Positions 3,231 through 62,019 of a DNA stretch of 64,000 bases are shown here, in pieces. Position numbers and translations under genes: made by a program. This stretch comes from Candidatus Saccharimonadales bacterium (lineage in GTDB: Bacteria > Patescibacteriota > Saccharimonadia > Saccharimonadales > JBBQYC01), in assembly GCA_038209015.1 (NCBI GenBank), contig JBBQYC010000001.1, positions 18,974-82,973 on the forward strand. The letters run 5' to 3'. The notes beneath the pieces are model-generated. The model ran no database searches, was not told where the DNA came from, and was given only the letters and a program-made list of their open reading frames with translations. Position 1 is the stretch's first letter. The number at the start of each line of letters is the position of its first letter.

Positions 3231-3250
3231 GCAATTAAAAGGATATCTAT

Positions 3251-3673: not shown

Positions 3674-3745
3674 CGGATAGCTAAGAGTTGTCATCAGAGT
3701 TCTATCTGTGATATAACACCTATAAATCAATAAGAAAGGTTTTCA

Positions 3746-5870: not shown

Positions 5871-6024
5871 GGAAAGGAGTGGTCATGGGTAGTATGGCCC
5901 TTCTTTCCTAGAGAATTTTGAACACAAGGTTCGATAATCGAATGATATTTATACTGAAGTCAAAATTGCCAATTTTCTAAGATAAAACAGTTTTGGCTTG
6001 AAGTATTAGCCCTCTCTGCCGATG

Positions 6025-6378
6025 CTAGTCCATATTTATTCTATGTATTTCTTTCGGTATTACTGATCTACGATTAGCCAAACACATTTTTATGAGAAAT
6101 TCTTCGTCTTTCGGCTTATAAATATATAACCAGTCATACTCGTTGATAGCTGACTTCTTGATAACATACCCTTTTGAATTTGAATGAATTTTCCGTAGGT
6201 CTACTTCTTTGCCTCCAAAATACTTAACCTGCACCCGCCATAAACCCAATGAGTCATCAACGATAAGATCATAGGCTGCAGATTCCGTAAGGGGTAGCGA
6301 AATATCGAAACCCATTTTAGTAAATGTAGCAATAGCTTGTGTTACGGCTATATCCCCTTTTCGTTGAGTCGGTCTCAT
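6025..6378 (-). CDS. small PD-(D/E)XK-like nuclease-fold hypothetical protein
   Basis: Motif AYDLIVDD...LWRVQVKY fits the D-x(n)-(E/Q)-x-K nuclease core. Sits between two tRNA-Ser genes. Confidence 0.4.
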   Translation of the reverse strand: MRPTQRKGDIAVTQAIATFTKMGFDISLPLTESAAYDLIVDDSLGLWRVQVKYFGGKEVDLRKIHSNSKGYVIKKSAINEYDWLYIYKPKDEEFLIKMCLANRRSVIPKEIHRINMD

Positions 6379-6444
6379 AGGTAAATAGTAACATTAAACG
6401 GTTTAGTATACCGTTGATTTTTTATGATATAATTTTACGCTATT

Positions 6445-6534
6445 GGAGAGATGACCGAGTGGTTGAAGGTACTTGTCTTGAAAACAAGCGTGCCCGCAAG
6501 GGTACCGTGGGTTCGAATCCCACTCTCTCCGCCA
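6445..6534 (+). tRNA. tRNA-Ser (anticodon TGA), CCA encoded
   Basis: GGAGAGA acceptor. Anticodon stem-loop CTTGT-CTTGAAA-ACAAG. Long variable arm. T-arm GTGGGTTCGAATCCCAC. Confidence 0.85.
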
Positions 6535-6543
6535 AGAAGAAAA

Positions 6544-6565
6544 ACTCACTCCAGTGAGTTTTTTA
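6544..6565 (+). terminator. rho-independent terminator after tRNA-Ser(TGA)
   Basis: ACTCACT-CC-AGTGAGT hairpin followed by TTTTTT. Confidence 0.6.
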
Positions 6566-6614
6566 ATTTCGTTACTTATGCATCGTAGGGGTTTTGTAGT
6601 CAACTTGGTACAAT

Positions 6615-6932
6615 ATGCTTATGTCCAGTAGTGAGCTCTCTGCAATGTTCTGTTATGTATATCTCCTTCGATCTGAGATGAGCAATAATTGGTATGTCGG
6701 TTTTACTAACGATTTACGCAAAAGATTAACAGAACACAACAATGGCTTGAATCGTTCAATAGCCCATGGTAAACCGTGGGTATTTGAATACTACGAGGCG
6801 CATCGGAATGAGACTGATGCACGAAGGCGAGAGAATTATCTTAAAACCAGCGCTGGTCATCAGACACTACGTAGAACGTTACGCGAACAACTAAGCCGCC
6901 GCGATTCAAGCCGGCAGAAAGTCTACTACTAG
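6615..6932 (+). CDS. GIY-YIG nuclease family protein (UPF0213-like)
   Basis: YVYLLRSEMSNNWYVGFTNDLRKRLTEHN matches the GIY-YIG core (Y..Y..G...NL..R...H). The probable start is the internal ATG (MFCYVYLL, ~6645). Confidence 0.7.
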   Translation: MLMSSSELSAMFCYVYLLRSEMSNNWYVGFTNDLRKRLTEHNNGLNRSIAHGKPWVFEYYEAHRNETDARRRENYLKTSAGHQTLRRTLREQLSRRDSSRQKVYY

Positions 6933-6934
6933 GT

Positions 6935-7555
6935 ATGCAACCAGGGGAAACAATCACACCGGGACAGACAACTGAACCATCTGGCGAAACCGAACAGAAG
7001 TTTCGCTACAGTGCAGAACCTGCTAACCCGCAACCATCCCCTACTCCAGTGCCTCCTACACAAAGCCCAGCACAACCAGAAGCGATATATGAACAAGCTA
7101 CTTTAGCCGAGTGGAGTGCTTCAGAATATATAGATCATCATAAATCCATAGAATGGTACGCGGTTCTAGTCTTAGCTTCGGTATTACTAGGCGGGTTGCT
7201 GTATCTTGTAACGCGTGACTGGATAAGCGTCGTCGTGGTTCTGCTAGCTGCTGGCATGTTCGGAATCAGTGGCGCCAAAAAGCCACGAACTCTCACATAT
7301 AGGATTACGGAGAGTGGCGTCCAGGTAGCGGGAAAACTGTATCCATATGAAGATATAAAAGTGTTCTCTGTGGTTAATGAGGGTGGTGTTAGCTCAATTC
7401 AACTCCTACCTCTCCGTAGATTTATGCCACCACTAAGTATTTACTATCCACCAGATATGGAAGAGCCTATATTTAATGCTTTAGCTAACTATCTCCCACA
7501 CGAAGAGAATAAACATGACCCCGTAGACCGTCTCATGAAGCGTTTGCGATTCTAG
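6935..7555 (+). CDS. hypothetical membrane protein, Pro-rich N-terminus, two TM helices
   Basis: ORF with PTPVPPTQSPAQP low-complexity and TM segments (WYAVLVLASVLLGGLLYLV; SVVVVLLAAGMFGI). Confidence 0.5.
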   Translation: MQPGETITPGQTTEPSGETEQKFRYSAEPANPQPSPTPVPPTQSPAQPEAIYEQATLAEWSASEYIDHHKSIEWYAVLVLASVLLGGLLYLVTRDWISVVVVLLAAGMFGISGAKKPRTLTYRITESGVQVAGKLYPYEDIKVFSVVNEGGVSSIQLLPLRRFMPPLSIYYPPDMEEPIFNALANYLPHEENKHDPVDRLMKRLRF

Positions 7556-7558
7556 TAG

Positions 7559-7996
7559 TTATTTCTTTTTTGGAAGTTTGAGCAATGTACGGAACGAGTT
7601 ACTTTTGAGTCTATTACCGTAATCATTCGCGCCCTTCGTTCCTGGTGCGACCAGTAAGTACACAGCGGCCAAGAAGTTAATAATAGGTACAACCGCAAAA
7701 ATAATGAGCCACCATGGCTGGTTTAGGTCGTGAAGCCTGCGCACAATTGTGCTGGTTTCTATAATTACCGCGATGAGCTGAAACATCCCTAACAGCAAAA
7801 GTCCAGCCCCGACTACCACCAGTTGATACAGGACTGAATCGGTACCATATTTTTCGAGGTATGTTCCTAGAACAATTGCCGGAGCCACTACGACTAACAC
7901 GATTGCCGCTAGGATGAGCGAAAAATATATCGACGTTAGAAGGAATTGTATGCGTGACAACCGCCCCTGGAAAAGAGATGTTATGTATTCAATCAT
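7559..7996 (-). CDS. DUF805-family inner membrane protein
   Basis: GRLSRIQF N-terminal motif and RRLHDLNQPWW motif typical of DUF805 (YhaH-like). Multiple TM helices. Confidence 0.65.
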   Translation of the reverse strand: MIEYITSLFQGRLSRIQFLLTSIYFSLILAAIVLVVVAPAIVLGTYLEKYGTDSVLYQLVVVGAGLLLLGMFQLIAVIIETSTIVRRLHDLNQPWWLIIFAVVPIINFLAAVYLLVAPGTKGANDYGNRLKSNSFRTLLKLPKKK

Positions 7997-8083
7997 TTAT
8001 TCAATAGTAGCACGACAAAATAAAAAGCCATCTTTCGACAGCTTTTGAATACATTTGGTACAGCATTATATACGAAGTTAGAA

Positions 8084-8320
8084 CTATTTTGGCTCTTGAA
8101 TGTCGCCTTCTAGAATGTATGTAGTTTCTACCTGGGCTTGTCGCATAAAAGGCTTTTCAGCTTGTGGCAGTACGGTCTCTAGTAGCTGTCTAGCAGCACT
8201 CAATTTTCTCGCAACTTCTATAACTTGGTCGGGTGGAGTATCAATAGGAACTCTAAGAGGGTCTCTACCGACTTCTTGAACCACATTTAGACCTTCTCTT
8301 GATTTCCTGAACATACTCAC
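8084..8320 (-). CDS. hypothetical protein (78 aa)
   Basis: ORF only. Located 45 nt downstream (minus sense) of repeat copy 1. Confidence 0.35.
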   Translation of the reverse strand: MSMFRKSREGLNVVQEVGRDPLRVPIDTPPDQVIEVARKLSAARQLLETVLPQAEKPFMRQAQVETTYILEGDIQEPK

Positions 8321-8367
8321 AGTTTAGCACTAAGCATCCAATCAAATGCGAACAAAACACCAAACAA

Positions 8368-8460
8368 GATTCAAACTCGTTTCAAGATGATAAAAAACAG
8401 CTAACAAAAAAGAGATTGAAACTGACTTCAATCTCTATCTGTAATTTCACTCTGGTACAC
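8368..8460. repeat. ~93-bp direct repeat copy 1; contains a minus-strand rho-independent terminator hairpin and an 8-10-nt fragment identical to the tRNA-Arg 3' end
   Basis: gattcaaactcgtttcaa...acaaaaaagagattgaa-actgac-ttcaatctctatctgtaatttcactctggtacac aligns to 9269..9360. The 3' 50 nt are nearly identical. GAGATTGAA/TTCAATCTC is a perfect 9-bp inverted repeat followed (minus sense) by TTTTTT. Confidence 0.8.
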
Positions 8461-8511
8461 GGTAATAAAGGAAGTTCAAACTGCTATAAACAGCTTGGTA
8501 GTTGCCTGAAA

Positions 8512-9216
8512 TTATTTTTTAGCTTTATGCCTTATATCATTCTTTGTTTCTTTTTGGGTAACTGCATCAGCAAGATTAACATTCAACCTATTGGCTAAAT
8601 GCACGAGGTATAGTTGCACATCTGCAAGCTCGTCTAATACAGAAACGTTTTCATAGCCTTCATCACGATTAAGCCCTTCGTTTTTACGAATTGCACGTGC
8701 TAACTCACCAATCTCCTCTGTAAGAAGCAACATTGTGTCTCTTGCGGATTCTTCTGCCCAGCCCCTACGTTTAGATATTCTTGCATAGTAGCTTTGCAGA
8801 CCATTTATTCCGTGTCCTGGTTTGTGAACTCTTTCCTGTACATCAGTGGGGCTTTTAACAACTTCTGTAATCATTTTTTCTATCAAAGGGTCAACAGGCT
8901 TTTCATCTGTATAAACGGGTATGCCAAGGGAGTGAGCATTGCCGATTTCAAAAGCCGCACTTAAGCCGACGTAACCAGAAGGAGCAAACAGCCACACGAA
9001 ATCTGCGTCACGCATTGCAGCAAGCAGCCGTTCTTCAATGGTGACAATATCATCATCTAGCTCGTGCTGTGCTCTCACAAAGTCTGCTTTTGGCTCAGTA
9101 AAATCTATGCTCTTAGGGCAAAGAATATCAAAATCAACAGACAAGCTTTCGTATAGCCGCCTAAGCTTCTCTTGTTCCTTTCGGAAGGTACCTATTAAAA
9201 CGACGCTTTTTCGCAT
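8512..9216 (-). CDS. fusion protein: N-terminal nucleoside 2-deoxyribosyltransferase-like (Rossmann-like) domain + C-terminal MazG-like nucleotide pyrophosphohydrolase domain
   Basis: N-terminal half FVWLFAPSGYVGLSAAFEIGNAHSLGIPVY (deoxyribosyltransferase-like). C-terminal half LLLTEEIGELARAIRK...DELADVQLYLVHLANRLNVNLADAV (MazG/NTP-PPase helices with EExxE/D motifs). Confidence 0.6.
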   Translation of the reverse strand: MRKSVVLIGTFRKEQEKLRRLYESLSVDFDILCPKSIDFTEPKADFVRAQHELDDDIVTIEERLLAAMRDADFVWLFAPSGYVGLSAAFEIGNAHSLGIPVYTDEKPVDPLIEKMITEVVKSPTDVQERVHKPGHGINGLQSYYARISKRRGWAEESARDTMLLLTEEIGELARAIRKNEGLNRDEGYENVSVLDELADVQLYLVHLANRLNVNLADAVTQKETKNDIRHKAKK

Positions 9217-9268
9217 AGTTCTATAGTAGCAGTTCAGCCATGACCCTCATGCACTCAGACACCAGGCA

Positions 9269-9360
9269 GGATTCAAACTCATTTCAAAGTGTTAATCTCT
9301 GACCAACAAAAAAGAGATTGAATAGGGCTTCAATCTCTATCTATAATTTCACTCTGGTAC
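9269..9360. repeat. ~92-bp direct repeat copy 2; overlaps the 3' terminal 6 nt of tRNA-Arg and contains its downstream terminator hairpin
   Basis: See copy 1. GAGATTGAA-TAGGGC-TTCAATCTC hairpin at 9314..9337 with a T-run on the minus strand. Confidence 0.8.
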
Positions 9361-9431
9361 ACCCGGCAGGATTTGAACCTACGACCTTCTGTACCGCAAA
9401 CAGACGCTCTATCCAGCTGAGCTACGGGTGC
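9355..9431 (-). tRNA. tRNA-Arg (anticodon GCG by my folding; CCA encoded)
   Basis: The reverse complement GCACCCGTAGCTCAGCTGGATAGAGCGTCTGTTTGCGGTACAGAAGGTCGTAGGTTCAAATCCTGCCGGGTGTACCA folds as a 77-nt cloverleaf. Acceptor GCACCCG/CGGGTGT. Anticodon loop TTGCGGT. Confidence 0.8.
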
Positions 9432-9929
9432 GCGTCAGAGTGAGGCTTTTGACTCGCTCTGACGCGCCAAGCACGCAGAGTCTCATCTTGTAGCTCTCCC
9501 TCCTCCTTTCTAGTTTTTTTAAACAGCCGAGCCCGCAAAGCCGACTCCTTGGTTTAAAAAAACTGATTCAGGGCAGTTAGACTGCCAGAAACAGGGGTGA
9601 TTGTAGCATATGGCTGAGTATAGTGCCAGAGGCAGCGTAAAACTGTTGGTTTTGTGTCTCAGTCACCATTAATAACCATAATAGTGTTAGATTGATTATA
9701 GAACTTATAAAAAATATAGGGTATCGTGCTAATTGAAGGGAGACTTCGGGTTATGGTACACAAAAAATTTATTCCGCGTTATTACGTGCGAGATAGCGAA
9801 ACGCAAGAACTGTGGTGTTTTACTGCGCCAGCCATCGCTGGGAAATAACGGAAGTTATAATTATTGGCTTTTGATGGTTCAGTACTTTGTGCTGAACTCG
9901 GTTTGGTCTGCTGCTACTATGTATTGCAT

Positions 9930-10023
9930 GGAAGAGTGGCCGAGCCCGGTTGAAGGCGCACGACTCGAAATCGTGTAAGTACGGCAACGTGCTTCGAGGG
10001 TTCGAATCCCTCCTCTTCCGCCA
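9930..10023 (+). tRNA. tRNA-Ser (anticodon CGA), CCA encoded
   Basis: GGAAGAG acceptor. Anticodon stem-loop CACGA-CTCGAAA-TCGTG. Long variable arm. T-arm GAGGGTTCGAATCCCTC. Confidence 0.85.
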
Positions 10024-31447: not shown

Positions 31448-32173
31448 ATGAAAATCGTCTCAACAGATGATATCAAAAACCTAGGCACGATTTTATGTCT
31501 TGGTGCGCATCCGGATGATGAAACATATACGGCCGGTGGCATATTGGCTGCAGCAGCAGCGAATGGTCAGCAAGTAGTGTGTATAACAGCAACGAGGGGA
31601 GAGCAAGGCGTACAGGATGAACGACGTTGGCCGCGTGCCAGCCTGGCGGCTACACGGGAAGCTGAACTTGCATCAGCTCTGGCCGTTCTCGGTGTTAAGA
31701 ACCATCACTGGCTTTCCTACAAAGATGGATGTTGCGGCGATGTTTCATCAGCTGATGCCGTAGATGCACTGCGACCGCTCTTATTACGCTATCAACCAGA
31801 CACTATCCTGACATTCGGGCCTGATGGAATGACGGGGCATGAAGACCATTCGGCGGTATCGAACTGGGCAGCGGCAGCCAAGCAGGAGCTAGGATTAAAA
31901 GCGAATATGTATCATGCGGTTATAGCTCAGGATATATATGACGATTACTTACAGGAACTCGATAAGCACTTGAATATGTTTTTTAATATCGATAAGCCCC
32001 CACTTCGGCAGGCATCGGTATGTGATATTTCGTTCCAGTTGACTGATGACATATGTGTGCAAAAATGCAATGCGCTTCGAGCTATGCCATCTCAAACCAG
32101 CGGACTGTTTAAGCGTTTTACTACTGAATGGATCTGCAGGGCATGGGCCAAAGAAACTTTCGTAAAGACGTAG
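31448..32173 (+). CDS. PIG-L/LmbE family N-acetylglucosaminyl deacetylase
   Basis: LCLGAHPDDE and HEDH motifs. Confidence 0.75.
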   Translation: MKIVSTDDIKNLGTILCLGAHPDDETYTAGGILAAAAANGQQVVCITATRGEQGVQDERRWPRASLAATREAELASALAVLGVKNHHWLSYKDGCCGDVSSADAVDALRPLLLRYQPDTILTFGPDGMTGHEDHSAVSNWAAAAKQELGLKANMYHAVIAQDIYDDYLQELDKHLNMFFNIDKPPLRQASVCDISFQLTDDICVQKCNALRAMPSQTSGLFKRFTTEWICRAWAKETFVKT

Positions 32174-32213: not shown

Positions 32214-32696
32214 ATGAAGGAATCATTTCCATCAAACAAAAATTACGAATTACAACAAGCATATCTTAGGCAAAAACAAGCAGACATCAGTCAAAAGCTG
32301 TTTGAGGCTGGAGTAAGCCCACGTATCTTAGAGGTTCAAGAAGGCCATGGTGCTAAGATTGCTTCGCGTGGGCTGGATATGTTGAATGTACAATGTTTCC
32401 CAGTTAGAAAAAAACGCACGACTTCGTTAGGCGATGAACTCACCGTAATAAATTTATGCGTGAAACAAGAAGATACCGAACGATCCGCAGCTTCATACAA
32501 ATACATTCCTGTCGGTACGCTTGATCGTTCGGGAGTGATTATATATCCCTCCAAGGGAATAATCCCGGAAGATGCCGAAGCAGTCCTTATGGCAGGGCTC
32601 GATCTTGCGGCTGCCAGGGATTCAGGCGAACTACCGGATCTAGACTGGTCACTTCAATCTGTACGAAACCCAAACACTGCTATCAAGAAAGCCTAA
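32214..32696 (+). CDS. hypothetical protein (160 aa)
   Basis: ORF only. Confidence 0.4.
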   Translation: MKESFPSNKNYELQQAYLRQKQADISQKLFEAGVSPRILEVQEGHGAKIASRGLDMLNVQCFPVRKKRTTSLGDELTVINLCVKQEDTERSAASYKYIPVGTLDRSGVIIYPSKGIIPEDAEAVLMAGLDLAAARDSGELPDLDWSLQSVRNPNTAIKKA

Positions 32697-33214
32697 ATAG
32701 GCTGTTTTTTATACCCGATCTTGTAGCCGATGTATGAGATTGCCAGGTGTAATCCGAAGTACACTACAAAAATAGTTACAATCACCCACAGTGGAACAGA
32801 TACGACCAGGCTAACTGCTAGCAATCCTCCAATGATGTAATCTATTTGATCAAAAGGGAACCAGCTTGAGCCGGGGTTTATATTGAGCTGGCGCTTGACC
32901 ATGCTTTCCAGAGCGTCGCCGGCTAATGCGCCGAAACCAAGCAATCCACCAATGATATACAGCGGGGCGGGGCCAACCGCATTTGGCACAATCATCCCGA
33001 TTACTACCGCCGATAGCGCGCCTACAACCGTACCCATAATGAGGCCACGCCAGGTTTTATTGGCTCCAAACAGCGGTCTACCACGTAGTTTCAAGCCGAA
33101 GTCTATTGGCGTGTTCCACTGGTCTAGTAATGGTAAACGGCTGGCGAAAACTGGCGCCATATTGGCAAGGCCCGCTGGTAGAAAAAACAGTATTGCAGCT
33201 ATGTAATCGTTCAT
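32693..33214 (-). CDS. CTP-transferase family integral membrane protein (CdsA/CarS-like, short CarS-sized form)
   Basis: KTWRG and GDALESMVKRQ motifs and a C-terminal FPFDQIDYIIGG. 173 aa with 5 TM. Confidence 0.55.
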   Translation of the reverse strand: MNDYIAAILFFLPAGLANMAPVFASRLPLLDQWNTPIDFGLKLRGRPLFGANKTWRGLIMGTVVGALSAVVIGMIVPNAVGPAPLYIIGGLLGFGALAGDALESMVKRQLNINPGSSWFPFDQIDYIIGGLLAVSLVVSVPLWVIVTIFVVYFGLHLAISYIGYKIGYKKQPI

Positions 33215-33873
33215 TTTTTGAGCTTCTTTTTGAGCTTATTAAATTTTGGATAGAGCAGTGCTCGTGCGCTTGGGCGCATAGTAAATGGTATCCCAGCTGC
33301 TAACTGACTGACAAGATTTGTTTGGTCGATCGGTTTTAATACAGTGGTATAGGTACGACCTAGTCCCATAAACCCGTGCGCATCACTACTCGCGACCCCA
33401 GGTATTCTATTAAGCTTGGCATACACGGCCGCTTGCTGACTGCGGTTTTGTAAGAATGCACGGCCATTCACGACTTCAAAAATATCAATATCACTGATAC
33501 AAGCATCTAAATCTTTGGGGTGCAGCCCCTGGCGGACCGTTTCAAATGGGTGTGGAATATATACCAAACCACCCTGGCGTTTGATTGCATGAATGGTGGC
33601 TTTCAGCGACTGGTTGGGTGCTATAACCTCTGATAAAAATAGCCCGATTATCTCACCGGACTCAGTTAGGATTTCCTCGCCTACTATAACCTGGTGACCG
33701 AGGGCGTCCCGTAGATGCAGCGCAAAATCTATGCTGTTATGATCTGTTACTGCTACAAAATCAAGCAACTGCGAACTGAGCGCTTTACGATATTGGTCTA
33801 TAGTGATGCCGCCGTCAGGGCTGGCAGACGAATGCGTGTGCAAGTCAATCTTATACACTCGATAACCGCCCAA
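33211..33873 (-). CDS. PHP-domain metal-dependent phosphoesterase
   Basis: IDLHTHSSASPDG and VTDHN motifs. Confidence 0.7.
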   Translation of the reverse strand: MGGYRVYKIDLHTHSSASPDGGITIDQYRKALSSQLLDFVAVTDHNSIDFALHLRDALGHQVIVGEEILTESGEIIGLFLSEVIAPNQSLKATIHAIKRQGGLVYIPHPFETVRQGLHPKDLDACISDIDIFEVVNGRAFLQNRSQQAAVYAKLNRIPGVASSDAHGFMGLGRTYTTVLKPIDQTNLVSQLAAGIPFTMRPSARALLYPKFNKLKKKLKK

Positions 33874-34555
33874 GGATATTAGCTAGACGGGTTAGTATTG
33901 TGATTATGCCTAAGACCAGGATGATTGCTAATACATACGGTATCTGGCTGAATAAAAAGCCAACAACCAGCAAAAACATTCGTACTTCAAAGCCGAGAAC
34001 ACCGCCACGGAATGTTTTGTTTACCGGATGGGCAGTATCAGACTGAGTCGAGAGGACAGCTTCACCCCACGCATTTAGATAGCTAATGAGGATGGAAACA
34101 CCTACGCAAGCCAGTGCTAAAACCGCTAAGTAAGGACTATCTGTAAAATATATCGTCCACCAGCCAATGCCAACGTACAGCACAACTTCTTTTATGCGGT
34201 CGGTAAAAGAATCAAGAAACATACCGCTGGCACTTGTCGATTTCTGCAATCGTGCCAGTTCGCCGTCCAGCGTATCGAATAATCCAAAAATGATCAGTAA
34301 AATCCCTGAAACGAACAAGTAATCGCTGGCCACTAAATAGGCAATAGGGATATGAGCTGCCAGCCCCGCGAGGGTGATACTGGTCGGTGTTAGTGTACCG
34401 CGCGATAGCGAATTCAGAGCCTTTGCGAGTGTGTGCATAAGACTACGGACCACTGTTTTAATAGTCTGCATAGCCACATTATACGGTGTTATTGCTTTAT
34501 ATCGGAATGATGGGAAAACAGTTAGCAGCCCAAAGTGTTTAGTTTTATCGCACAT
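33851..34555 (-). CDS. CDP-alcohol phosphatidyltransferase family protein
   Basis: DTLDGELARLQKSTSASGMFLDSFTDRIKE matches D-G-x2-A-R-x8-G-x3-D-x3-D. Confidence 0.75.
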   Translation of the reverse strand: MCDKTKHFGLLTVFPSFRYKAITPYNVAMQTIKTVVRSLMHTLAKALNSLSRGTLTPTSITLAGLAAHIPIAYLVASDYLFVSGILLIIFGLFDTLDGELARLQKSTSASGMFLDSFTDRIKEVVLYVGIGWWTIYFTDSPYLAVLALACVGVSILISYLNAWGEAVLSTQSDTAHPVNKTFRGGVLGFEVRMFLLVVGFLFSQIPYVLAIILVLGIITILTRLANILGRLSSV

Positions 34556-48968: not shown

Positions 48969-50444
48969 ATGGCAGTGAGTAAAGACATCATTATTATTGG
49001 TGCCGGGTTTGGTGGATTAAGCGCAGCAGCGTATTTGGCGCGCGCCGGACATAATGTAACGGTGCTTGAGAAAAACGATCGCCCGGGTGGGCGAGCGATG
49101 GTATTTTCTGCGCGCGGTTACGTCTTTGATCAAGGTCCATCCTGGTACCTTATGCCGGATGTGTTTGATGAATTCTTCGCTGATTTTGAAAAAGTAACCA
49201 GCGACTACTATGAGCTAGAAACACTTGAGCCATCATATAAAGTCTTTGAGAAGGATGATTCCTACAATGTAACGACTGCACCGTCAGTATTTACATTATT
49301 CGAAAAACTAGAACCCGGTTCCACCAAGTCAATTACTCGATTACTGGAAAAAACCAAATCAGAGTACGATGCGGTAAGAGCCGGGCTACTGATAAACTCG
49401 CAATTGAGCCCTCTCAGTTTGTTAAGAGAACCAAAGGTTCGAAAACTTCTGAAAAACACCGAATTAGTTCGATCATATCATTCACGTATTTCTAAATATG
49501 CAAAAACCGACAAGCTCCAACATATTCTAGAATTTATGACGGTATTTTTAGGCGGGAGTCCCGGTAATGTTCCCGCAATGTATAGTTTGCTTACTCATGT
49601 CGATCTAGGTTTGGGTGTGAGGTATCCAGCCGGCGGTATCGGGAGTGTGGTATCGGCATTTGTTAGGCTTGTCCAAGAGCAGGGAGCACGTATCCGCTAC
49701 GAATCACCGGTTGCTCGCATTACGACTCATAACGGTAAAACAACCGGGGTTATATTGGAAAACGGCACAGAATTACCAGCTGATATAGTGGTCGCTAATG
49801 CAGATTACCATCATGTTGAAACAACTATGCTCGGTAGTAAAGATAGAACATACGATGAAACGTACTGGCGCAAAAAAACTGTTTCGCCATCAGGTCTTCT
49901 GATATATCTTGGCGTGAATAAAAAAATACCAAGTCTGCAGCATCACAATTTGTTTTTTGATACAGACTGGGACCATCACTTCAGAGAAGTATTCAATCGT
50001 AAAAAATGGTCGTCGGAACCATTATTTTATGTATGCATGCCATCCCGGAGTGATAAAACTGTCGCTCCAAAAGGGAAAGAAAACTTGTTTGTGTTGGCAC
50101 CTATGGCTAGTGGAGTCCAACCAACTCAGACCGAAATTGATACAACCGTCAAGAGCATTTTAAGGCGAATTGAACGGCATAGTGGTACAGTTTTTCAGGA
50201 TAAAATCGAGGTACAAGAAGTTCGAACACAAGCATACTTCGAGGAAGCATTTAATGCGTACCAAGGTAATGCATTTGGGCTTGCTCATACACTCAGTCAA
50301 TCGGGGCCATTACGGCCACGTATGAAAAGTAAAAAAGTAGCCGGACTGTACTATGTTGGCCAGTACACAAACCCAGGAACTGGAGTACCACTGGTTGTAC
50401 TGTCCGGCAAAGCTGTGAGTAATCTGATTCAAACTCATGAGTAA
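48969..50444 (+). CDS. crtN: phytoene/diapophytoene desaturase family FAD oxidoreductase (CrtI/CrtN-like)
   Basis: IIIGAGFGGLSAA...GGR dinucleotide motif. Pattern DQGPSWYLMPDVF as in CrtN/CrtI. Confidence 0.75.
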   Translation: MAVSKDIIIIGAGFGGLSAAAYLARAGHNVTVLEKNDRPGGRAMVFSARGYVFDQGPSWYLMPDVFDEFFADFEKVTSDYYELETLEPSYKVFEKDDSYNVTTAPSVFTLFEKLEPGSTKSITRLLEKTKSEYDAVRAGLLINSQLSPLSLLREPKVRKLLKNTELVRSYHSRISKYAKTDKLQHILEFMTVFLGGSPGNVPAMYSLLTHVDLGLGVRYPAGGIGSVVSAFVRLVQEQGARIRYESPVARITTHNGKTTGVILENGTELPADIVVANADYHHVETTMLGSKDRTYDETYWRKKTVSPSGLLIYLGVNKKIPSLQHHNLFFDTDWDHHFREVFNRKKWSSEPLFYVCMPSRSDKTVAPKGKENLFVLAPMASGVQPTQTEIDTTVKSILRRIERHSGTVFQDKIEVQEVRTQAYFEEAFNAYQGNAFGLAHTLSQSGPLRPRMKSKKVAGLYYVGQYTNPGTGVPLVVLSGKAVSNLIQTHE

Positions 50445-51285
50445 GCAGCTTGAAAAACAAATATTTCGCAACGGTAGTACAACGTACTACTGGAGCAGTG
50501 TATTTTTCCCAAAACAGGAGCGGTCTGATATTTTTCGTTTGTATAGTTTTGTTCGGGTTGCTGATGATTACGTAGATGCAATCCCGCAGCAAAAAGAACA
50601 GTTTAACGATCTGGTGCGGTTATGGCAAACGGTTTCAGCAGATACGACATATACACTTACGCCAAATGATGGTGACTCAATCGATTTGAGAGTGGTCAAA
50701 AATATAGTTTATTTGCAGCGCAATAAAGGCATTAAAAAAGAGTGGGTCGAGGCATTCATAAAAGCTATGCAATCCGATACTAAGCTGCATACATATAAAA
50801 CGATCGACGATTCACTGGCATATGTATATGGCTCTGCCGAGGTCATCGGTTTAATGATGTGCCAGGTTCTCGGTATTCCAAAGCAAGCTCACAAAGCAGC
50901 TATGATGCAGGGGAGGGCAATGCAGTGGATTAATTTTATTCGTGATATTGACGAAGACAATCGACTTGGCCGCCAGTATTTTCCGCAATTCAGTTTAAAT
51001 GAGCACGGCCTCGAAAATCTTACCTCACCTGATCAGGAAGAACGTATAAATACATTTATTCGCTCGGAAATTACACGCTACAGTGAATGGCAAGAGCGGG
51101 CTTACGAAGGCTACAGATATATCCCAAGACGTTACCAAATACCTATTGCGACAGCAGCCGATATGTACAACTGGACTGCGCATCAGATTAATAAAAATCC
51201 ATCAATCGTTTTTACTAAAAAACTTAAACCAAGTCGGTTTCGAGTCCTCATTACCGTCTTAAAACATAGTTTGCGAGCTATATAG
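50437..51285 (+). CDS. crtM: squalene/phytoene synthase family (CrtM/CrtB-like)
   Basis: YSFVRVADDYVD and IRDIDEDNRLGRQYFP Asp-rich motifs. 8-nt overlap with the desaturase. Confidence 0.75.
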   Translation: MSKQLEKQIFRNGSTTYYWSSVFFPKQERSDIFRLYSFVRVADDYVDAIPQQKEQFNDLVRLWQTVSADTTYTLTPNDGDSIDLRVVKNIVYLQRNKGIKKEWVEAFIKAMQSDTKLHTYKTIDDSLAYVYGSAEVIGLMMCQVLGIPKQAHKAAMMQGRAMQWINFIRDIDEDNRLGRQYFPQFSLNEHGLENLTSPDQEERINTFIRSEITRYSEWQERAYEGYRYIPRRYQIPIATAADMYNWTAHQINKNPSIVFTKKLKPSRFRVLITVLKHSLRAI

Positions 51286-51315
51286 CCGTTCGCTTATTTT
51301 CAGGTAGTCTACAGG

Positions 51316-51903
51316 TTACTTCTGTTCTATGTCGAGTTTTGCTAGCAATGTATCTAATGATCTCAAGAGTGTATCAACAGAACCATCATTAACGAATGTA
51401 TAATCAGCGAATGCAATCGGTCCGCCTTGCTCCAGGTTTTCAATCTGAGCAATATCGCGATTCATAATTTGTTCCGCCGAGGTGTATTTGCGGTGGCTAT
51501 CTACTCGATTTAAAATCCGTTGATATCGCTCTAAACGAGGTGCAGTAACGGCGATAAGCAGTAAATCGTCACCAATTTTGTTATGCAGATAGTTCCGCTC
51601 GCTCCAGCTATACAGGCCGTCGAACACAACCGTTGTGTGTCCCTCATTAAAATATTTATTTGCTTTTCGTAAAGCGTGTTTGGCAAGCACGGCTGTACCA
51701 TCTTGCTTGCGCATGTCTTCGCGAACAAAAGCTTCATCGGCAACGTTATCTAATCCGCGGCGTTGCACTTCTTCGTATACCATAGTCCCGAAATGGACCA
51801 CCGGAAGCTTATAGGCAGTTTCAATATGATTAGTACAGGTTCCTTTTCCTGAACCCGGCATCCCCACAAAAGCTATTATTCTATTCCTCTTCACGCAAGT
51901 CAT
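51316..51903 (-). CDS. P-loop nucleoside/nucleotide kinase-like protein
   Basis: Walker A GMPGSGKGT. Size ~195 aa. Confidence 0.5.
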   Translation of the reverse strand: MTCVKRNRIIAFVGMPGSGKGTCTNHIETAYKLPVVHFGTMVYEEVQRRGLDNVADEAFVREDMRKQDGTAVLAKHALRKANKYFNEGHTTVVFDGLYSWSERNYLHNKIGDDLLLIAVTAPRLERYQRILNRVDSHRKYTSAEQIMNRDIAQIENLEQGGPIAFADYTFVNDGSVDTLLRSLDTLLAKLDIEQK

Positions 51904-51963
51904 TGTAACGCGACTTCAAAAAAAGTGAGAACATTTGTAACCGGCGTATACTAGAAGCCACGT

Positions 51964-53073
51964 ATGACTAAAAAAATTGATACTGCAAACCCGGATATTG
52001 CCGTTTTTACGCGCAAACTTAACGAATTTAAACAGTTGATAGACGCTGATATTTCCACTTACAGCCGTCAGATTACTAAAAACACAAGAAAACAGTACGG
52101 CCCATATGCCCAGATTGAAATAGACGCATTCTTGAGTATTTTAGGACGCGGTGGTAAACGCATTCGCGGAGCACTCGTCATGCTGGGTTATGAGATGAGT
52201 GGTGGTACGAACAAAGCTATGATTATTGAAGCAGCTCGGGTGGTCGAAATGATTCATGCGTATATTCTAATCATTGATGATATCCAGGACCGTTCTAGGA
52301 TACGCCGCGGAGGTCCGGCTGCACATATGCTTTTGAGCGAATACCATAGTCAGCACAGCCTATCTAGTAATAGTGATCACTTTGGTATTTCTATTGCTAT
52401 GAACAGTGCACTTGCCGGAGCCCACGCTGCTCAAATGCTACTCACTAACTTGGACGTCGATCAGCAGCTGCGCCTGAATACAATAGCTATACTCAACCGA
52501 ACTATGCTGGTAACGGCACACGGACAGACCAATGACATCATGAACGAGGTGTTAGCAGAAGTGAGCCAAAAAGATATCGAAACAGTTTTAGAGTGGAAGA
52601 CTGCGCACTATACGTTTTTAAATCCACTGCACATGGGTATGGTGCTAGCTGGTGCGGATTGTGATGCTACTGATGCCATAAGCAACTATGCAATTCATGC
52701 CGGGAAAGCATTTCAAATTACCGACGATATCCTAGGTGTTTTTGGGAATGAATTTGAAAGTGGCAAATCACCACTGGATGATATACGCGAAGGCAAGCGT
52801 ACCGTGTTGACTGTCAATGCTCTTGAAAACACTGATGACGGGAATAAAAACTTTCTTATTCAAATGTTAGGGAACGACCATTTAACACGCGCTGAATTTG
52901 ACCGTTGCAAAGACATAATTATAGAAGCCGGGTCGCTCGATTATGCAAAGAAACGAGCCATACATCACATTAATCAGGCTGTTGAATCGCTGGATGGTGT
53001 GGACTATTGGTCAGAGGACGGATTGGCATTTTTACGCGGCTTAGCAGTATCACTGCTCAATCGTCATAGCTAG
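51964..53073 (+). CDS. polyprenyl diphosphate synthase (FPP/GGPP synthase family)
   Basis: First DDxxD (LIIDDIQD) and second (FQITDDILG) Asp-rich motifs. Confidence 0.8.
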   Translation: MTKKIDTANPDIAVFTRKLNEFKQLIDADISTYSRQITKNTRKQYGPYAQIEIDAFLSILGRGGKRIRGALVMLGYEMSGGTNKAMIIEAARVVEMIHAYILIIDDIQDRSRIRRGGPAAHMLLSEYHSQHSLSSNSDHFGISIAMNSALAGAHAAQMLLTNLDVDQQLRLNTIAILNRTMLVTAHGQTNDIMNEVLAEVSQKDIETVLEWKTAHYTFLNPLHMGMVLAGADCDATDAISNYAIHAGKAFQITDDILGVFGNEFESGKSPLDDIREGKRTVLTVNALENTDDGNKNFLIQMLGNDHLTRAEFDRCKDIIIEAGSLDYAKKRAIHHINQAVESLDGVDYWSEDGLAFLRGLAVSLLNRHS

Positions 53074-58077: not shown

Positions 58078-59994
58078 TTGGGAAAATTCCGCATACCATA
58101 CAGTAAAGAACACATACATACTATGAGCATCATACATACAGTATTACGTCCCATACAATCGATTTTCGGATTTTTGGGGCGCCTATCTCTTAAGATAAAA
58201 CTAGTGTTAACCGCCTTACTGGTGCTTGCAGGAGCCGCTTTCGTAGCTTTTGCATTTATATTGCCAGGTACACCGCCAGCCAGTAATCACGTTATTTTCT
58301 TATATAGTTCTGAAAACGGCTACAGTGAGACACAGTATGGCTTTGAACCGGTTAGGTACCCAACGGTGCTATATGACAATGGACTTTTTGTCTGTGGTTC
58401 TTCACATGTGGGTGAGGGAACGCCTAAGCAGCGTTATTTGGATAAGAAAACGCAGCAAACTTTCTTTGAGGAGCTTGGGGCTTCTGGCTTCCTTGGCCTG
58501 AAGAGCGGTGATTATTCTGAAGATTCAGAATTCCCCCAACCACTTGATTTAGAAACGACTATTTATGCAAATAAAGACGATCAACCCATTCACGTTACGT
58601 ATAGCAGCCCTGTATCACCTAAAAAACTTTCTAAAACAACAGCGTATATACAGACATTCTGCAACAAAGAGATACGAGACGATTTCCATACTGGCACCTA
58701 TCTGGTTCGAGCTATTAAGCTCGATGACGCCAAACAAGCTGGCCAGGAGTACCGTACCGTCCAAGTCGATCAGGCAACTGCTGATATGTTCGTGCGGACC
58801 AATGTTATTGAACCACAACAGTCAAAAACCGTAGACCAAAAATCATATGAAGAATTTCAATCAACCTTCAAAGCCGATACCGCGATACTTGCATATGAAG
58901 ACAAGCTGTTTCTCGTAAATATAACTCCTGCACTGCATCCATACGAACTAGCAGGCGGAAATATAGCTCATGCTCGCTCAGCAGATGTGGCAGGTGACAG
59001 CACTAACAAGCAAGTACTCGCTGATGCGACCCCGCACGTAGAATTCATTTGGCTTCATGGATCAAACCAAGCCCCTCCATCCGATGCCACTACTATTTTG
59101 CGTAGAACATCTCAGCGCGTCCGCGACTGGTATATGAGCAAAGCCGGCAAGACCCTGAAGTTTGGGGGAAACCGAGTATTAAAATCATCTCAAACAATCG
59201 GGCAGATCGAAACGTGTCCGAGCGAAACGGACTGCCAAGGCGATAAGTCCTTAGCGGCCTACTATAATTTGAAAAAAAGCGTATACCCCGATCTCACCGG
59301 ACGACAGGTCGTAGTGTTATACCAAGGAACACACGACCAATGTAACGGCTGGGGTGCGCCGAATAGCGGCGATTATGGTGGGGGGAGTTTGAACTCTGCG
59401 GGAACCTCGAACGGAGGCTTTGGTCTACTCAATATTATAGCTTGCAATTGGGATAATGGTAGGGAAAAGGTGGCAGGTCATGAGCTGGGGCATGCCTTAG
59501 GTTCAACTCATTGGTGCCAAGATAAAAATATTATGGTCGGTTCGGGATGTTCCAGTTCCGCTCGCTCCGACGGACTTCGCTATGCGAATATGAATGATAC
59601 GCAAAAAAACGCATTTTTGGGCAGTGAATTCTTTAAAAAGTCGAGTGATAGATTGTTACCAGGCCAACGTCTCTACTCTGGCGGGGTGATGCATTCAATA
59701 GATGGGAGTTACAGGCTTATTGTTCAACCAACAGATGGAAATGTCGTAGTTTACAGAAATGACAATGCATATAAGTGGGATTCAACCACGTACAATCCAG
59801 GGAACCCTCACATTATATTTGAGTTTGCAGAGGACGGTAACGTGCATGCATCAACAGATTATAGTTATGGCTGCCGCTCTGGTCCAAGGCCTGGGGCTAA
59901 TCGACTTATTATGCAACATGACGGTAATCTTGTCGCATATGATGCGGCGAATCAAGCAAAATGGGCAACCTCCTGGAATTATTGGTACTGTTAA
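58078..59994 (+). CDS. membrane-anchored metzincin-type zinc metalloprotease fused to C-terminal bulb-type (B-)lectin domain, paralog 1
   Basis: HELGHALGSTH (HExxHxxGxxH). C-terminal QxDxNxVxY-type repeats (VQPTDGNVVVY; MQHDGNLVAY). N-terminal signal-anchor TM. The first ATG is at 58123 (the track start at 58078 is TTG). Confidence 0.65.
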   Translation: MGKFRIPYSKEHIHTMSIIHTVLRPIQSIFGFLGRLSLKIKLVLTALLVLAGAAFVAFAFILPGTPPASNHVIFLYSSENGYSETQYGFEPVRYPTVLYDNGLFVCGSSHVGEGTPKQRYLDKKTQQTFFEELGASGFLGLKSGDYSEDSEFPQPLDLETTIYANKDDQPIHVTYSSPVSPKKLSKTTAYIQTFCNKEIRDDFHTGTYLVRAIKLDDAKQAGQEYRTVQVDQATADMFVRTNVIEPQQSKTVDQKSYEEFQSTFKADTAILAYEDKLFLVNITPALHPYELAGGNIAHARSADVAGDSTNKQVLADATPHVEFIWLHGSNQAPPSDATTILRRTSQRVRDWYMSKAGKTLKFGGNRVLKSSQTIGQIETCPSETDCQGDKSLAAYYNLKKSVYPDLTGRQVVVLYQGTHDQCNGWGAPNSGDYGGGSLNSAGTSNGGFGLLNIIACNWDNGREKVAGHELGHALGSTHWCQDKNIMVGSGCSSSARSDGLRYANMNDTQKNAFLGSEFFKKSSDRLLPGQRLYSGGVMHSIDGSYRLIVQPTDGNVVVYRNDNAYKWDSTTYNPGNPHIIFEFAEDGNVHASTDYSYGCRSGPRPGANRLIMQHDGNLVAYDAANQAKWATSWNYWYC

Positions 59995-60114
59995 TTCGAG
60001 ATTTTCCGTAAAAATCTATAAATAAGATCCAAGGTAATTCATTACCATTCTAAGTTGACAAACCGTATTGTATAAACATATGCTTCAATCAATACATTAT
60101 ATAAGGATTAAGCT

Positions 60115-62019
60115 ATGGCTGGCCGCACATTAAAACTCAAAACAAAAACAAAAACTTCTGTAAAAAAGTCTAATCGCAAAAAACAGCAAAGTAAATTGAA
60201 AGTATTCTTCAATATACTAAAACAAAGGAGGGCAATCCTTTTTGCGGTGTTTTTTGCAATCATTGGAGTAACCATACTGTATCTGGTGAATGCCCAGAAT
60301 ACGCCGAATACATATAATGAAGTAGCCTTTCTCTATAGCGAAGGCCATGGACATGAAGAATCACAATTTGACCTTAAACCGGTTGATTATCCATTAGTTT
60401 TATATAAGGATGGTTTATTGGTTTGTTCAGCACACGGTCATGGCAGTGAAGAATCCAGCCCAACACAGGCACAGCTTAACAAAGAGCAAATGAATGAGTT
60501 TCTATCTGCTGTCAGAACTAATGGGCTAGATAGTTTAGAAGAAAAACATTATGAATCAGCTGGTGGCCCGGCGGATCCTATAGCGTTATATACGACTGTT
60601 TTTGCCGACTTTGGCAGGAGCCAAAAATACGTAACATATAGTTCTGGTGATAGGCCAAGTGGGCTGAGTAGCATTACTTCATTTACGCACAATTACTGTG
60701 ATAATAAGGCAGTGGAAGCCTATGATGCCGACACCTATACTGTAGACAGTGTCATTATAGATAATCAAACGAATTCTAGAGTAACAGGACTCGCTAAAGC
60801 GCGAGAGGTGATTGGTGCCAAACTGAGCCGTAATGACCGCTTAGCTCAGGCTATCCGCAGCATAGACAACGCTAATAAAAAGCAGGCACAAAGTGTCAAC
60901 CGGCAGACTGCAAGTGAGATAAAAAAAGCGCTCAAAGGTAAGTCGGAGGGCGTCATGACGATAGAAGGTGCTGAAGTGCTAGTGCGGCTTACTCCGTTAC
61001 TAAGACCTTACGAATTAAAAGGGCAGAGTAATGTCAGCATAGAGAATGAGTCAGACAAAGTGTATGCCGCGACGGCAAAAAAAGTCGAATTTGTATGGTT
61101 CTATGCGTCCAATCAATCGTTACAAAGCGGATACACGACTAAATTAAACGGTACATCACAAAAAGTGCGCAGCTGGTACCGTAGTCAGGTGGGTGAAGAT
61201 GTTTTACATGCTAAGAACTACACCAAAAAAGGGGCAAAAACAGTAGCTCAATATGAAACCTGCCCGAGTGGTAAAAACTGTGCTGGTGATAAATTACTTG
61301 CTGCGTTTTATAATGTGCAGGCAGAGCTGGGGACACTAACTGATGCCCAGGTTGTCGTAATGTTTCAGGGCAGTGAAACCACCTGCAAAGGCTGGGGGAG
61401 TGTCGCTGGGTCGACCGCTAATAACTCTGTAACTGCAGCCAAATCAGGTACTGGTATAGTCAATGTGACGGGTTGTACGTGGGATGATGGACGTGAGAAA
61501 ATAGCAGGTCATGAGTTTGGCCATGGCCTAGGATCGGCACATTCATGCTACAACTATAATATTATGGCTAATAGTTCTTGCGCGACTACAGGCAATGGCT
61601 TACCACATTCAATACTGCACAGTACTCAGAAATCATCATGGGCAAATTACAGTCAGTTTTTCGGCGGAGTGCGTACTTACCTCAACGGCAACGAACATAT
61701 GTACCAAGGCCATACAACATATTCACCGCAGAAAAAATATCGATTAGTCATGCAAGGGGATGGTAACCTGGTCATATACAGCAGCAATAATTCAGCGGTA
61801 TGGAGTGCTAGAACTGGTGGTAACAGCGGTGCATTCTCTATATTCCAGACAGATGGCAATTTGGTACTCAGAAAACCAAGCGGTAAATATTGTCATGCTG
61901 CAAGCAACGGCAAGGGCGGGTATCGTCTCAATATGCAAGATGATGGCAACTTGGTTATCTACAAATCTGACCTAAAGACTGCCGTGTGGTCACGATACAA
62001 TGGTTGGTACTGCAACTAG
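60115..62019 (+). CDS. membrane-anchored metzincin-type zinc metalloprotease fused to C-terminal bulb-type lectin domain, paralog 2
   Basis: HEFGHGLGSAH. Three lectin repeats (MQGDGNLVIY; FQTDGNLVL; MQDDGNLVIY). Basic N-terminus + TM. Confidence 0.65.
   Translation: MAGRTLKLKTKTKTSVKKSNRKKQQSKLKVFFNILKQRRAILFAVFFAIIGVTILYLVNAQNTPNTYNEVAFLYSEGHGHEESQFDLKPVDYPLVLYKDGLLVCSAHGHGSEESSPTQAQLNKEQMNEFLSAVRTNGLDSLEEKHYESAGGPADPIALYTTVFADFGRSQKYVTYSSGDRPSGLSSITSFTHNYCDNKAVEAYDADTYTVDSVIIDNQTNSRVTGLAKAREVIGAKLSRNDRLAQAIRSIDNANKKQAQSVNRQTASEIKKALKGKSEGVMTIEGAEVLVRLTPLLRPYELKGQSNVSIENESDKVYAATAKKVEFVWFYASNQSLQSGYTTKLNGTSQKVRSWYRSQVGEDVLHAKNYTKKGAKTVAQYETCPSGKNCAGDKLLAAFYNVQAELGTLTDAQVVVMFQGSETTCKGWGSVAGSTANNSVTAAKSGTGIVNVTGCTWDDGREKIAGHEFGHGLGSAHSCYNYNIMANSSCATTGNGLPHSILHSTQKSSWANYSQFFGGVRTYLNGNEHMYQGHTTYSPQKKYRLVMQGDGNLVIYSSNNSAVWSARTGGNSGAFSIFQTDGNLVLRKPSGKYCHAASNGKGGYRLNMQDDGNLVIYKSDLKTAVWSRYNGWYCN

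Follow-up and report, generated by a model that had tools for sequence, protein, structure and literature searches.

A putative lipid head-group operon with a CarS-type CTP-transferase in a Saccharibacterium, and related gene pairs in DPANN archaea

The DNA analysed in this study (hereafter the window) is a stretch of 64,000 nucleotides from a Candidatus Saccharimonadales bacterium, a Saccharibacterium of the candidate phyla radiation (CPR), at positions 18,974 to 82,973 of contig JBBQYC010000001.1 (assembly GCA_038209015.1). The subject is a set of three adjoining genes on its minus strand, which encode a CDP-alcohol phosphatidyltransferase (hereafter the transferase), a phosphoesterase of the PHP family, and a 173-residue protein resembling the archaeal CDP-archaeol synthase CarS (hereafter the CarS-type protein). 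The original prediction had described three same-strand genes at this place, and all three open reading frames (ORFs) are indeed present. The genes and two nearby sequence elements are as follows, in window coordinates.

33851..34555, minus strand: CDP-alcohol phosphatidyltransferase of the AIPS/PIPS type, first gene of the operon (234-aa ORF; PF01066)
33211..33873, minus strand: PHP-family metal-dependent phosphoesterase, middle gene (220-aa ORF; PF02811 and PF13263)
32693..33214, minus strand: CarS-type CTP:lipid-phosphate cytidylyltransferase, last gene of the operon (173 aa; PF01864)
34478..34483, minus strand: perfect TATAAT hexamer, a possible -10 box (read from the sequence), 6 nt upstream of the ATG at 34471
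32690..32703, no strand assigned: palindrome AGCCTAAATAGGCT at the 3' end of the CarS-like gene, a terminator-like match on both strands

The three genes are tightly packed. Reading of the sequence showed that the stop codon of the PHP gene and the start codon of the CarS-type gene have an ATGA tetranucleotide in common. The stop of the transferase gene and the start of the PHP gene overlap by 8 nt if the PHP gene begins at GTG 33858, or by 23 nt if it begins at TTG 33873. GTG 33858 is the start in an NCBI-called product of 215 residues with 100% identity (P0121), and is the likely start of the PHP gene (215 aa). Since the first 28 residues of the transferase ORF are lacking in 19 orthologues, the transferase probably starts at ATG 34471 (206 aa) rather than at 34555. 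The TATAAT hexamer could be the -10 box of a leaderless or short-leader operon transcript, to which we give low weight; it is accompanied by a weak -35 region and is missing from the sites that the promoter scan listed. Only on the plus strand is the AGCCTAAATAGGCT palindrome followed by a T-rich tail, and it thus looks like the terminator of a converging plus-strand ORF, not of the operon. Terminator-like matches in the region numbered 4 against 2.6 expected from shuffled sequence, which is weak evidence, and neither the promoter nor the terminator scan gave more sites than shuffled sequence did. The conserved gene order and the overlapping start and stop codons argue for a single operon of three translationally coupled genes, which we regard as probable together with the rest of the interpretation set out below.

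Relatives of the CarS-like gene were sought in one genome per species, and synteny was analysed by tblastn in the best 80 of the 430 species genomes in which a relative was found. These best 80 were nearly all Saccharibacteria. The transferase was present in 75 of the 80 loci and the PHP gene in 74, each time between the transferase and the CarS-type gene, and the three genes kept the same order and strand in 72. With the E-values given below and the synteny over 80 species, the three-gene observation is far beyond chance. The genes for PGI, ArgRS, GroEL and two small membrane proteins are also collinear around the operon across Saccharibacteria. The operon is not universal in the phylum, since the oral, genome-reduced S. 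epibionticum has neither a PF01864 nor a PF01148 protein in its published gene table; the same table lists one PgsA-like transferase, which is non-essential. Variant Saccharibacterial loci were also found (L063 3483-5169, L048 3664-5185, L071 2979-4670). Some of these carry a second CDP-alcohol transferase, PgsA/ClsA-like, and a DAGK_cat lipid kinase, encoded divergently to the operon; L071 has both in a single fused protein of 563 aa. Contigs labelled Limnocylindrales (Chloroflexota) and Burkholderiaceae (L010, L035) show the Saccharibacterial synteny of ArgRS, operon and PGI, and a CarS-like protein labelled Thermoanaerobaculia (P0320) resembles Saccharibacterial proteins. All three labels probably belong to mis-binned contigs of metagenome-assembled genomes, the first two because of their synteny and the third on sequence similarity alone.

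The 173-residue protein is, by profile and by model, a full-length member of the CarS family with five transmembrane (TM) helices. The PF01864 profile matched residues 5-170 over profile positions 6-172 of 175 (E 3.7e-26, 92.6 bits, cut-off 22). The sequence of Aeropyrum pernix CarS (ApCarS; PDB 5GUF) aligned over residues 3-172 (E 7.6e-15). The AlphaFold2 model, with a pLDDT of 89, contains five long helices, and Foldseek superposed it on 5GUF with TM-scores of 0.75/0.82 and a root-mean-square deviation of 2.3 Å over 160 columns with 32% identity. The original prediction had described a five-TM protein with KTWRG...GDxxES..KR motifs, and these are found in NKTWRG at 52-57 and GDALESMVKR at 99-108, followed by DQID at 122-125. 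The G..KT, GD...S..KR and DQ.D motifs align with those of ApCarS. In 20 aligned CarS-like orthologues 37 positions were invariant, among them G50, N52-K53, R56-G57, G99-D100, E103-S104, K107-R108, D122-Q123 and D125. A search with the CarS-like profile returned 2712 clusters (50% identity) among 1.8 billion representatives, 268 of them with E <= 1e-30.

The NCBI name of the protein is 'CDP-archaeol synthase', as it is for the named homologues, which come from Candidatus Saccharibacteria, Saccharimonadales or Patescibacteria. The protein scored 132.3 bits against the NCBIfam CarS equivalog NF003114, below the cut-off of 148, and is therefore filed here as CarS-type and not as a proven CDP-archaeol synthase. 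It is like the archaeal enzymes (A. pernix 5GUF; A. fulgidus AF1740) in its size of about 175 aa, its five TM helices, its full-length match to the hidden Markov model (HMM), its fold and its G-x-x-K-T, G-D-x3-S-x2-K-R and D-Q-x-D motifs. It differs from them in the equivalog score and in being encoded by a bacterium, which the original prediction had singled out and which holds, as the organism is, by homologue names and synteny, a Saccharibacterium. The lipid substrate also appears to differ, being probably an acyl phosphatidic acid (PA), which characterised CarS rejects, and neither the window ORFs inspected nor the listed genes of Candidatus T. rhizospherense included any archaeal core-lipid genes.

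The original prediction had placed the protein with CarS rather than CdsA by size, and the comparison with bacterial CdsA agrees. The two belong to the same superfamily and have the same predicted reaction, from CTP and a lipid phosphate to a CDP-lipid and pyrophosphate. The core catalytic motif matched the CdsA profile PF01148 over 61 residues, at protein residues 52-112 and profile positions 169-230 of 264 (34.2 bits). CdsA proteins, however, have about 260-290 residues and nine TM helices. The structure of T. maritima CdsA (4Q2E) matched the model poorly (TM-score 0.38), and the NCBIfam CdsA model NF008635 gave 27 bits against a cut-off of 385. In the details of the motifs, the 'KTWRG' and 'ES' of the window protein are closer to bacterial CdsA, such as that of E. 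coli, than to ApCarS, while its DQ.D stands in place of the HGG..DR.D part of the PROSITE signature of CdsA. The partial PF01148 match could also be read to mean that the ORF is a truncated, non-functional remnant of CdsA, as the original prediction had considered. There is virtually no chance of this. In sequence and in structure alike the match to CarS covers the whole protein. The 120 homologues listed out of 1188 are nearly all 173-174 aa long, GD..ES..KR and DQ.D are among the invariant positions, and a relative of the gene is kept in 430 species genomes. The candidate was rejected on these grounds, and the gene is seen as encoding a conserved, full-length CarS-type protein.

The first gene encodes a CDP-alcohol phosphatidyltransferase, as predicted, with a match to PF01066 (E 4.7e-12) and the complete signature D94-x2-D97-G98-x2-A101-R102-x8-G111-x3-D115-x3-D119. 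The residues D94, D97, G98, A101, R102, G111, D115 and D119 are invariant or near-invariant in 20 orthologues. Its top NCBIfam matches were the archaetidylinositol phosphate (AIP) synthase, at 85.0 bits, and the phosphatidylinositol phosphate (PIP) synthase, at 84.6 bits. Both fall short of the equivalog cut-offs, 180 and 170 (NF040950/NF045883), reaching about half of them; PgsA models gave at most 22 bits. The profile of 20 orthologues had its best match in M. tuberculosis PgsA1, the PIP synthase MtPIPS (6H53; E 7e-19), and the nearest solved structures are those of mycobacterial PIP synthases. By these comparisons the transferase is closest to the (archaetidyl/phosphatidyl)inositol-phosphate synthases.

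The phosphate of inositol-1-phosphate is held in MtPIPS by R155 and R195, two residues that PIP synthases conserve absolutely (PMC4634129). The equivalents of both are arginines in all 20 aligned orthologues. The equivalents of D1-D4 are likewise invariant in the 20, and that of S132 is found in 19; the equivalence of R195 was also found by HMMER. The equivalent of K135 is lysine in 11 of the 20 and asparagine in nine, the window protein included. The M. tuberculosis PgsA1 sequence used for this mapping agrees with the segments in the database alignments. The acceptor of the transferase thus very probably carries a phosphate, and would be inositol-1-phosphate or glycerol phosphate. Since the arginines that hold this phosphate are conserved, a phosphatase step would be needed after the transfer. 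The similarity to AIP and PIP synthases does not fix the acceptor, because archaeal glycerophosphate (G3P) transferases cluster within the inositol-phosphate transferase group (review PMC9385802). In comparison with the PIP synthases (M. tuberculosis PgsA1 6H53, R. salmoninarum 5D91) and the archaeal AIP synthases, the window transferase has the complete motif and the S132, R155 and R195 equivalents, and differs in its HMM score, in the asparagine at the K135 position and in the lack of a partner inositol-1-phosphate synthase (MIPS) among the T. rhizospherense genes listed. The neighbouring genes of mycobacterial PIP synthases are also different.

The middle gene had been assigned to the PHP phosphoesterases, and the assignment stands. 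The matches to PF02811 (27.2 bits) and to PF13263, the PHP_C family (28 bits), are both just over the gathering scores, and the NCBIfam CehA/McbA metallohydrolase domain gave 69 bits. The AlphaFold2 model (mean pLDDT 87) is a PHP barrel. Foldseek matched it, with probability 1.0 for several PHP structures and TM-scores up to 0.69, to the PHP domain of RNase AM (7UG9), TM0559 (2ANU; TM-score 0.67), PsfC and Cv1693 (2YB1). The metal ligands are intact among the invariant residues, which are H12, H14, D20, D44-H45, E66-E67, H108, D164 and H166. The fold alone thus allows us to call the protein a metal-dependent phosphoesterase and nothing narrower. A strongly basic stretch with a hydrophobic stripe makes up its last 25 residues and would suit attachment to an anionic membrane surface. 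From its gene context, the protein is a candidate phosphatase for PIP or phosphatidylglycerophosphate (PGP).

The gene context beyond Saccharibacteria bears on this point. A complete genome of Candidatus Nomurabacteria (CP060223.1; L081 8001-8993) encodes a 330-aa fusion of an AIPS/PIPS-like CDP-alcohol transferase domain with CarS, and a second fusion of this kind was found elsewhere. CarS is also fused to DUF212, a divergent PAP2 phosphatase, and to PAP2 itself; the records of the fusion proteins other than L081 are P0352; P0382, P0392, P0393; P0398, P0403 and P0426. In an archaeal locus a CDP-alcohol transferase gene directly precedes a DUF212-CarS fusion, so that the order is again transferase, phosphatase, CarS. 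Three unrelated phosphoesterase families, PHP, DUF212 and PAP2, thus occur in the position beside CarS, which is the pattern expected of a required pathway step. The original prediction had proposed that the three enzymes act in series; the order kept in 72 of 80 loci together with the coupled genes, the two sorts of fusion and the three phosphatase families in one slot all point in that direction.

PHP genes with the PHP_C domain (211-219 aa) also stand beside CarS in four loci of DPANN archaea (Woesearchaeota, Nanoarchaeota and marine 'archaeon' contigs). Two of these have the PHP gene directly upstream of CarS, and in the other two a single gene separates the pair. In these loci the PHP gene adjoins two CDP-alcohol transferase genes, and three of the four loci also encode a phosphatidylserine (PS) decarboxylase. 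Comparison of two of the DPANN PHP proteins with that of the window showed homology (identity of 28-31% over 175 residues, with E-values of 4e-20 and 2e-17). In two marine contigs a PlsC-type acyltransferase gene (PF01553) lies between PHP and CarS (L088 2830-3387, L090 2838-3344). This enzyme, of the bacterial-style ester-lipid type, hints that the marine DPANN archaea may handle acyl lipids. One Woesearchaeal locus has a transferase and CarS with no phosphatase. The DPANN clusters resemble the Saccharibacterial operon in the homologous PHP protein of the same size at or near CarS, and their owners resemble Saccharibacteria in lifestyle, both being tiny, lipid-scavenging symbionts. They differ in the transferases, which are of other types (340-355 aa in four loci, one of which also has a 169-aa protein) and often divergently oriented. 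The DPANN loci also carry PS decarboxylase and, in two cases, PlsC, whereas the Saccharibacterial genes form a compact co-directional operon with an AIPS/PIPS-like transferase.

The nearest relatives of the CarS-type protein outside CPR are also DPANN archaeal (Woesearchaeota, Nanoarchaeota), with 32-42% identity over the full length, while ApCarS has 35% identity over 137 residues. In a neighbour-joining tree the Saccharibacterial clade (97% bootstrap) stood beside the DPANN clade, with a Nomurabacteria protein between the two and ApCarS far outside. The tree is rough, being a distance tree of 178 columns with a single crenarchaeal outgroup fragment, and the direction of transfer between CPR and DPANN is not readable from it. 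Since the PHP-CarS pairing is found in DPANN archaea too, the module would be a toolkit common to ultra-small episymbionts of both domains, and it was probably exchanged between the bacterial and the archaeal ones.

On this basis we interpret the operon as a module for lipid head-group synthesis or resynthesis in a Saccharibacterium unable to make its own lipids, an interpretation which we hold to be probable. In the first step, suggested by family and fold, the CarS-type enzyme would convert CTP and a lipid of the phosphatidic-acid type to a CDP-lipid and pyrophosphate. The lipid would most likely be a diacyl-phosphatidate. The cell could salvage this from the host, or a phospholipase D or lipid kinase could produce it from host lipid. 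In the second step, suggested by the motifs and the closest relatives, the transferase would exchange CMP for a phosphorylated polyol, most likely myo-inositol-1-phosphate or alternatively glycerol-3-phosphate, to give PIP or PGP. The third step follows the gene context: the PHP phosphoesterase, at the membrane surface, would remove the terminal phosphate to give phosphatidylinositol (PI) or phosphatidylglycerol (PG). The original prediction had spoken of a PG- or PI-type pathway, and this seems the right level for the claim, as the transferase scores far higher with inositol-phosphate-type models than with PgsA and keeps both phosphate-binding arginines. As part of the same interpretation, the CarS-type enzyme would take the place of canonical CdsA in Saccharibacteria; among the listed genes of T. 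rhizospherense, the single match to K00981 (cdsA) is a 186-aa protein of the same operon (31.7 bits).

A dedicated phosphatase beside a PIPS-type transferase has a precedent in the Bacteroides cluster BT_1522-BT_1526, with the PIP synthase BT_1523, the MIPS BT_1526 and the PIP phosphatase BT_1525 of the PgpA family (Heaver et al. 2022). The window cluster is like it in this pair, and differs from it in that its candidate phosphatase belongs to the PHP family, unrelated to PgpA, and in that it includes a CTP-transferase and no MIPS. The phosphatase that converts PIP to PI has been described as unidentified in mycobacteria and archaea (PMC4634129; PMC9385802), and is otherwise known only from Bacteroides.

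Several facts weigh against our interpretation. As the whole neighbourhood is collinear in Saccharibacteria, conserved adjacency inside the phylum is by itself weak functional evidence. The scores of both the CarS-type protein and the transferase fall below the NCBI equivalog cut-offs. The solved structures nearest to the PHP protein belong to nucleases and to phosphatases of nucleotides rather than of lipids, and in three Saccharibacterial loci the PHP gene is absent, the transferase gene abutting that of CarS. CarS of A. fulgidus prefers digeranylgeranylglyceryl phosphate (DGGGP) over phosphatidate and fails to complement an E. coli cdsA mutant (PMC9385802); activity on diacyl-PA would thus be a change of specificity. 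The absence of canonical CdsA is read from the published tables of two genomes, T. rhizospherense and S. epibionticum. Family profiles and ORF inspection found no MIPS in the window, and K01858 (inositol-1-phosphate synthase) is not among the listed genes of Candidatus T. rhizospherense. Uptake of inositol-1-phosphate from the host is possible. Two IMPase-family genes are among the listed T. rhizospherense genes, and at another locus (L075, 4427-5458) an IMPase-family gene lies 0.5 kb from a CarS gene that has no PHP and transferase partners.

The nature of the head group and that of the lipid both admit alternatives. The operon could make PG, with glycerol-3-phosphate or glycerol-1-phosphate as the acceptor and the PHP protein as PGP phosphatase. 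Archaeal archaetidylglycerophosphate synthases, which cluster inside the inositol-phosphate group (PMC9385802), use such acceptors, and the two conserved arginines demand only a phosphate on the acceptor. The missing MIPS, in the window and among the T. rhizospherense genes listed, and the asparagine at the K135 position, a residue that may contact the inositol ring, point the same way. We nevertheless consider this doubtful, though the strongest of the alternatives, given the 85 bits with AIPS/PIPS against at most 22 with PgsA, the mycobacterial PIP synthases as the best solved relatives, and the separate PgsA-like gene in T. rhizospherense and several related loci. Moreover, the hosts of the known cultivated Saccharibacteria are Actinobacteria (PMC10633639), and some actinobacterial clades make inositol lipids. 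As to the lipid, the family of the enzyme, the preference of its characterised members for DGGGP over PA and its DPANN archaeal relatives would suit an archaeal-type substrate: the CarS-like protein would then activate a prenyl ether lipid resembling archaetidic acid, and the bacterium would make or remodel lipids that resemble archaetidylinositol. The window also encodes a polyprenyl synthase of the geranylgeranyl diphosphate (GGPP) type 18.7 kb away, along with phytoene/squalene-synthase and desaturase genes; the polyprenyl synthase gene, however, adjoins genes of the carotenoid type instead. No GGGPS, DGGGPS or UbiA-type gene was found among the window ORFs inspected, and no GGGPS, DGGGPS or prenyltransferase, nor K17104 or K17105, is among the listed T. 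rhizospherense genes, which points to an acyl lipid. So do the DAGK_cat lipid kinase and PgsA-like transferase that adjoin the operon in some Saccharibacteria, and the PlsC-type acyltransferase inserted between PHP and CarS in marine DPANN archaea. Actinobacteria, the hosts of the known cultivated Saccharibacteria, likewise make acyl lipids. An isoprenoid lipid is, on balance, quite improbable.

The role of the PHP protein can also be doubted. It may not act on lipid head groups at all, being an RNase AM-like nuclease or pAp phosphatase that rides along in the operon, or a pyrophosphatase that pulls the CTP-transferase reaction; the pathway would then consist of the two membrane enzymes only. 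Its closest structures, RNase AM, TM0559 and the 3',5'-bisphosphate nucleotidase Cv1693, would fit this, as would the assignment of the T. rhizospherense orthologue to K07053 by KEGG, the three Saccharibacterial loci lacking PHP and the Woesearchaeal locus lacking a phosphatase. With about 215 residues, however, the protein is without the extra domain of the RNase AM/TrpH proteins of about 290 residues. PAP2-like lipid phosphatases (PAP2, DUF212) occupy the slot beside CarS elsewhere, sometimes as fusions, and the PHP-CarS pairing is kept across the boundary between bacteria and archaea despite different surrounding genes. The arginines for the acceptor phosphate imply a phosphatase step as well. 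Such a non-lipid role is therefore unlikely in our view, and a lipid head-group phosphatase is the role that we prefer for the PHP protein.

The annotation of these genes and the kind of pathway, a CDP-lipid head-group pathway, are already known. Starr et al. (2018) read the genes as CdsA and PI synthase feeding the synthesis of phosphatidylinositol mannosides from scavenged phosphatidate, with no comment on the CarS nature of the protein and no role for the PHP gene. In our literature searches no paper was found that discusses CarS-type enzymes in CPR, Saccharibacteria or Patescibacteria, the 2018 study only annotating the genes; nor did the cross-domain PHP-CarS module, or PHP as a candidate for the missing phosphatase, turn up in them. 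What we would add, as a tentative proposal, is a salvage module of PHP and CarS that spans CPR and DPANN. Its CarS clade would accept acyl phosphatidate and would have replaced CdsA in Saccharibacteria, and its PHP protein would be the missing phosphatase for PIP and AIP, or for a glycerophosphate analogue.

Other genes of the window deserve mention. A PIG-L family gene (GlcNAc-PI/GlcNAc-inositol de-N-acetylase, MshB/BshB-like) at 31448-32173 on the plus strand converges on the operon and lies directly after PGI. Both PIG-L and PGI were weighed as possible members of the pathway; PIG-L adjoins the operon in 35 of the 80 loci, in convergent orientation and inside the generally collinear region. 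If the operon makes PI, a glycolipid of the GlcN-PI type, or the use of intermediates of the mycothiol pathway of the host, would be conceivable. A 160-aa ORF at 32214-32696 on the plus strand also converges on the CarS-type gene and overlaps its stop codon by 4 nt. It gave no Pfam or NCBIfam match and no homologue in the 80 related loci; we dropped it as a member of the system for these reasons, and it would be an orphan gene specific to the lineage, if it is a gene at all.

At 48969-53073 the window holds an isoprenoid gene set of the carotenoid type, a surprise in a Saccharibacterium with its reduced genome. An FAD amine-oxidase/phytoene-desaturase-like gene (48969-50444) overlaps a squalene/phytoene synthase gene (50437-51285), and a small kinase-like gene on the opposite strand separates these from the polyprenyl (GGPP-type) synthase gene (51964-53073). 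T. rhizospherense has the GGPP synthase gene too, adjoining one for cytidylate kinase. A run of small proteins (128-228 aa) is encoded at 1464-4162, four of them with signal-peptide-like N-termini, and these may be secreted or pilin-like paralogues. Two membrane-anchored proteins (634-638 aa) encoded at 58078-62019 have weak matches to reprolysin-type metallopeptidases, and one of them also has a weak match, below the gathering score, to the D-mannose-binding lectin family (B_lectin); they may be surface proteins in host interaction. Three tRNA-Ser genes (GCT, TGA, CGA) and one tRNA-Arg gene (GCG) are clustered at 5778-10023.

The membrane lipids of CPR bacteria and DPANN archaea are thought to be taken from their hosts, and to our knowledge it is essentially unknown how these organisms re-tailor host lipids. 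CarS and CdsA are cited as keeping the archaeal and the bacterial lipid pathways apart, the so-called lipid divide. If our interpretation is correct, a CarS-type enzyme as the sole CDP-lipid synthase of a bacterial lineage would directly test this divide, and the test would be sharpened by a module that is common with archaeal symbionts and by the adjoining acyl-lipid genes. The module also nominates a soluble, easily expressed PHP protein of about 215 residues as a candidate for the PIP/AIP or PGP phosphatase step. Should the product be PI, Saccharibacteria would gain the anchor lipid of the glycolipids of their actinobacterial hosts, which would be relevant to the interaction between the two.

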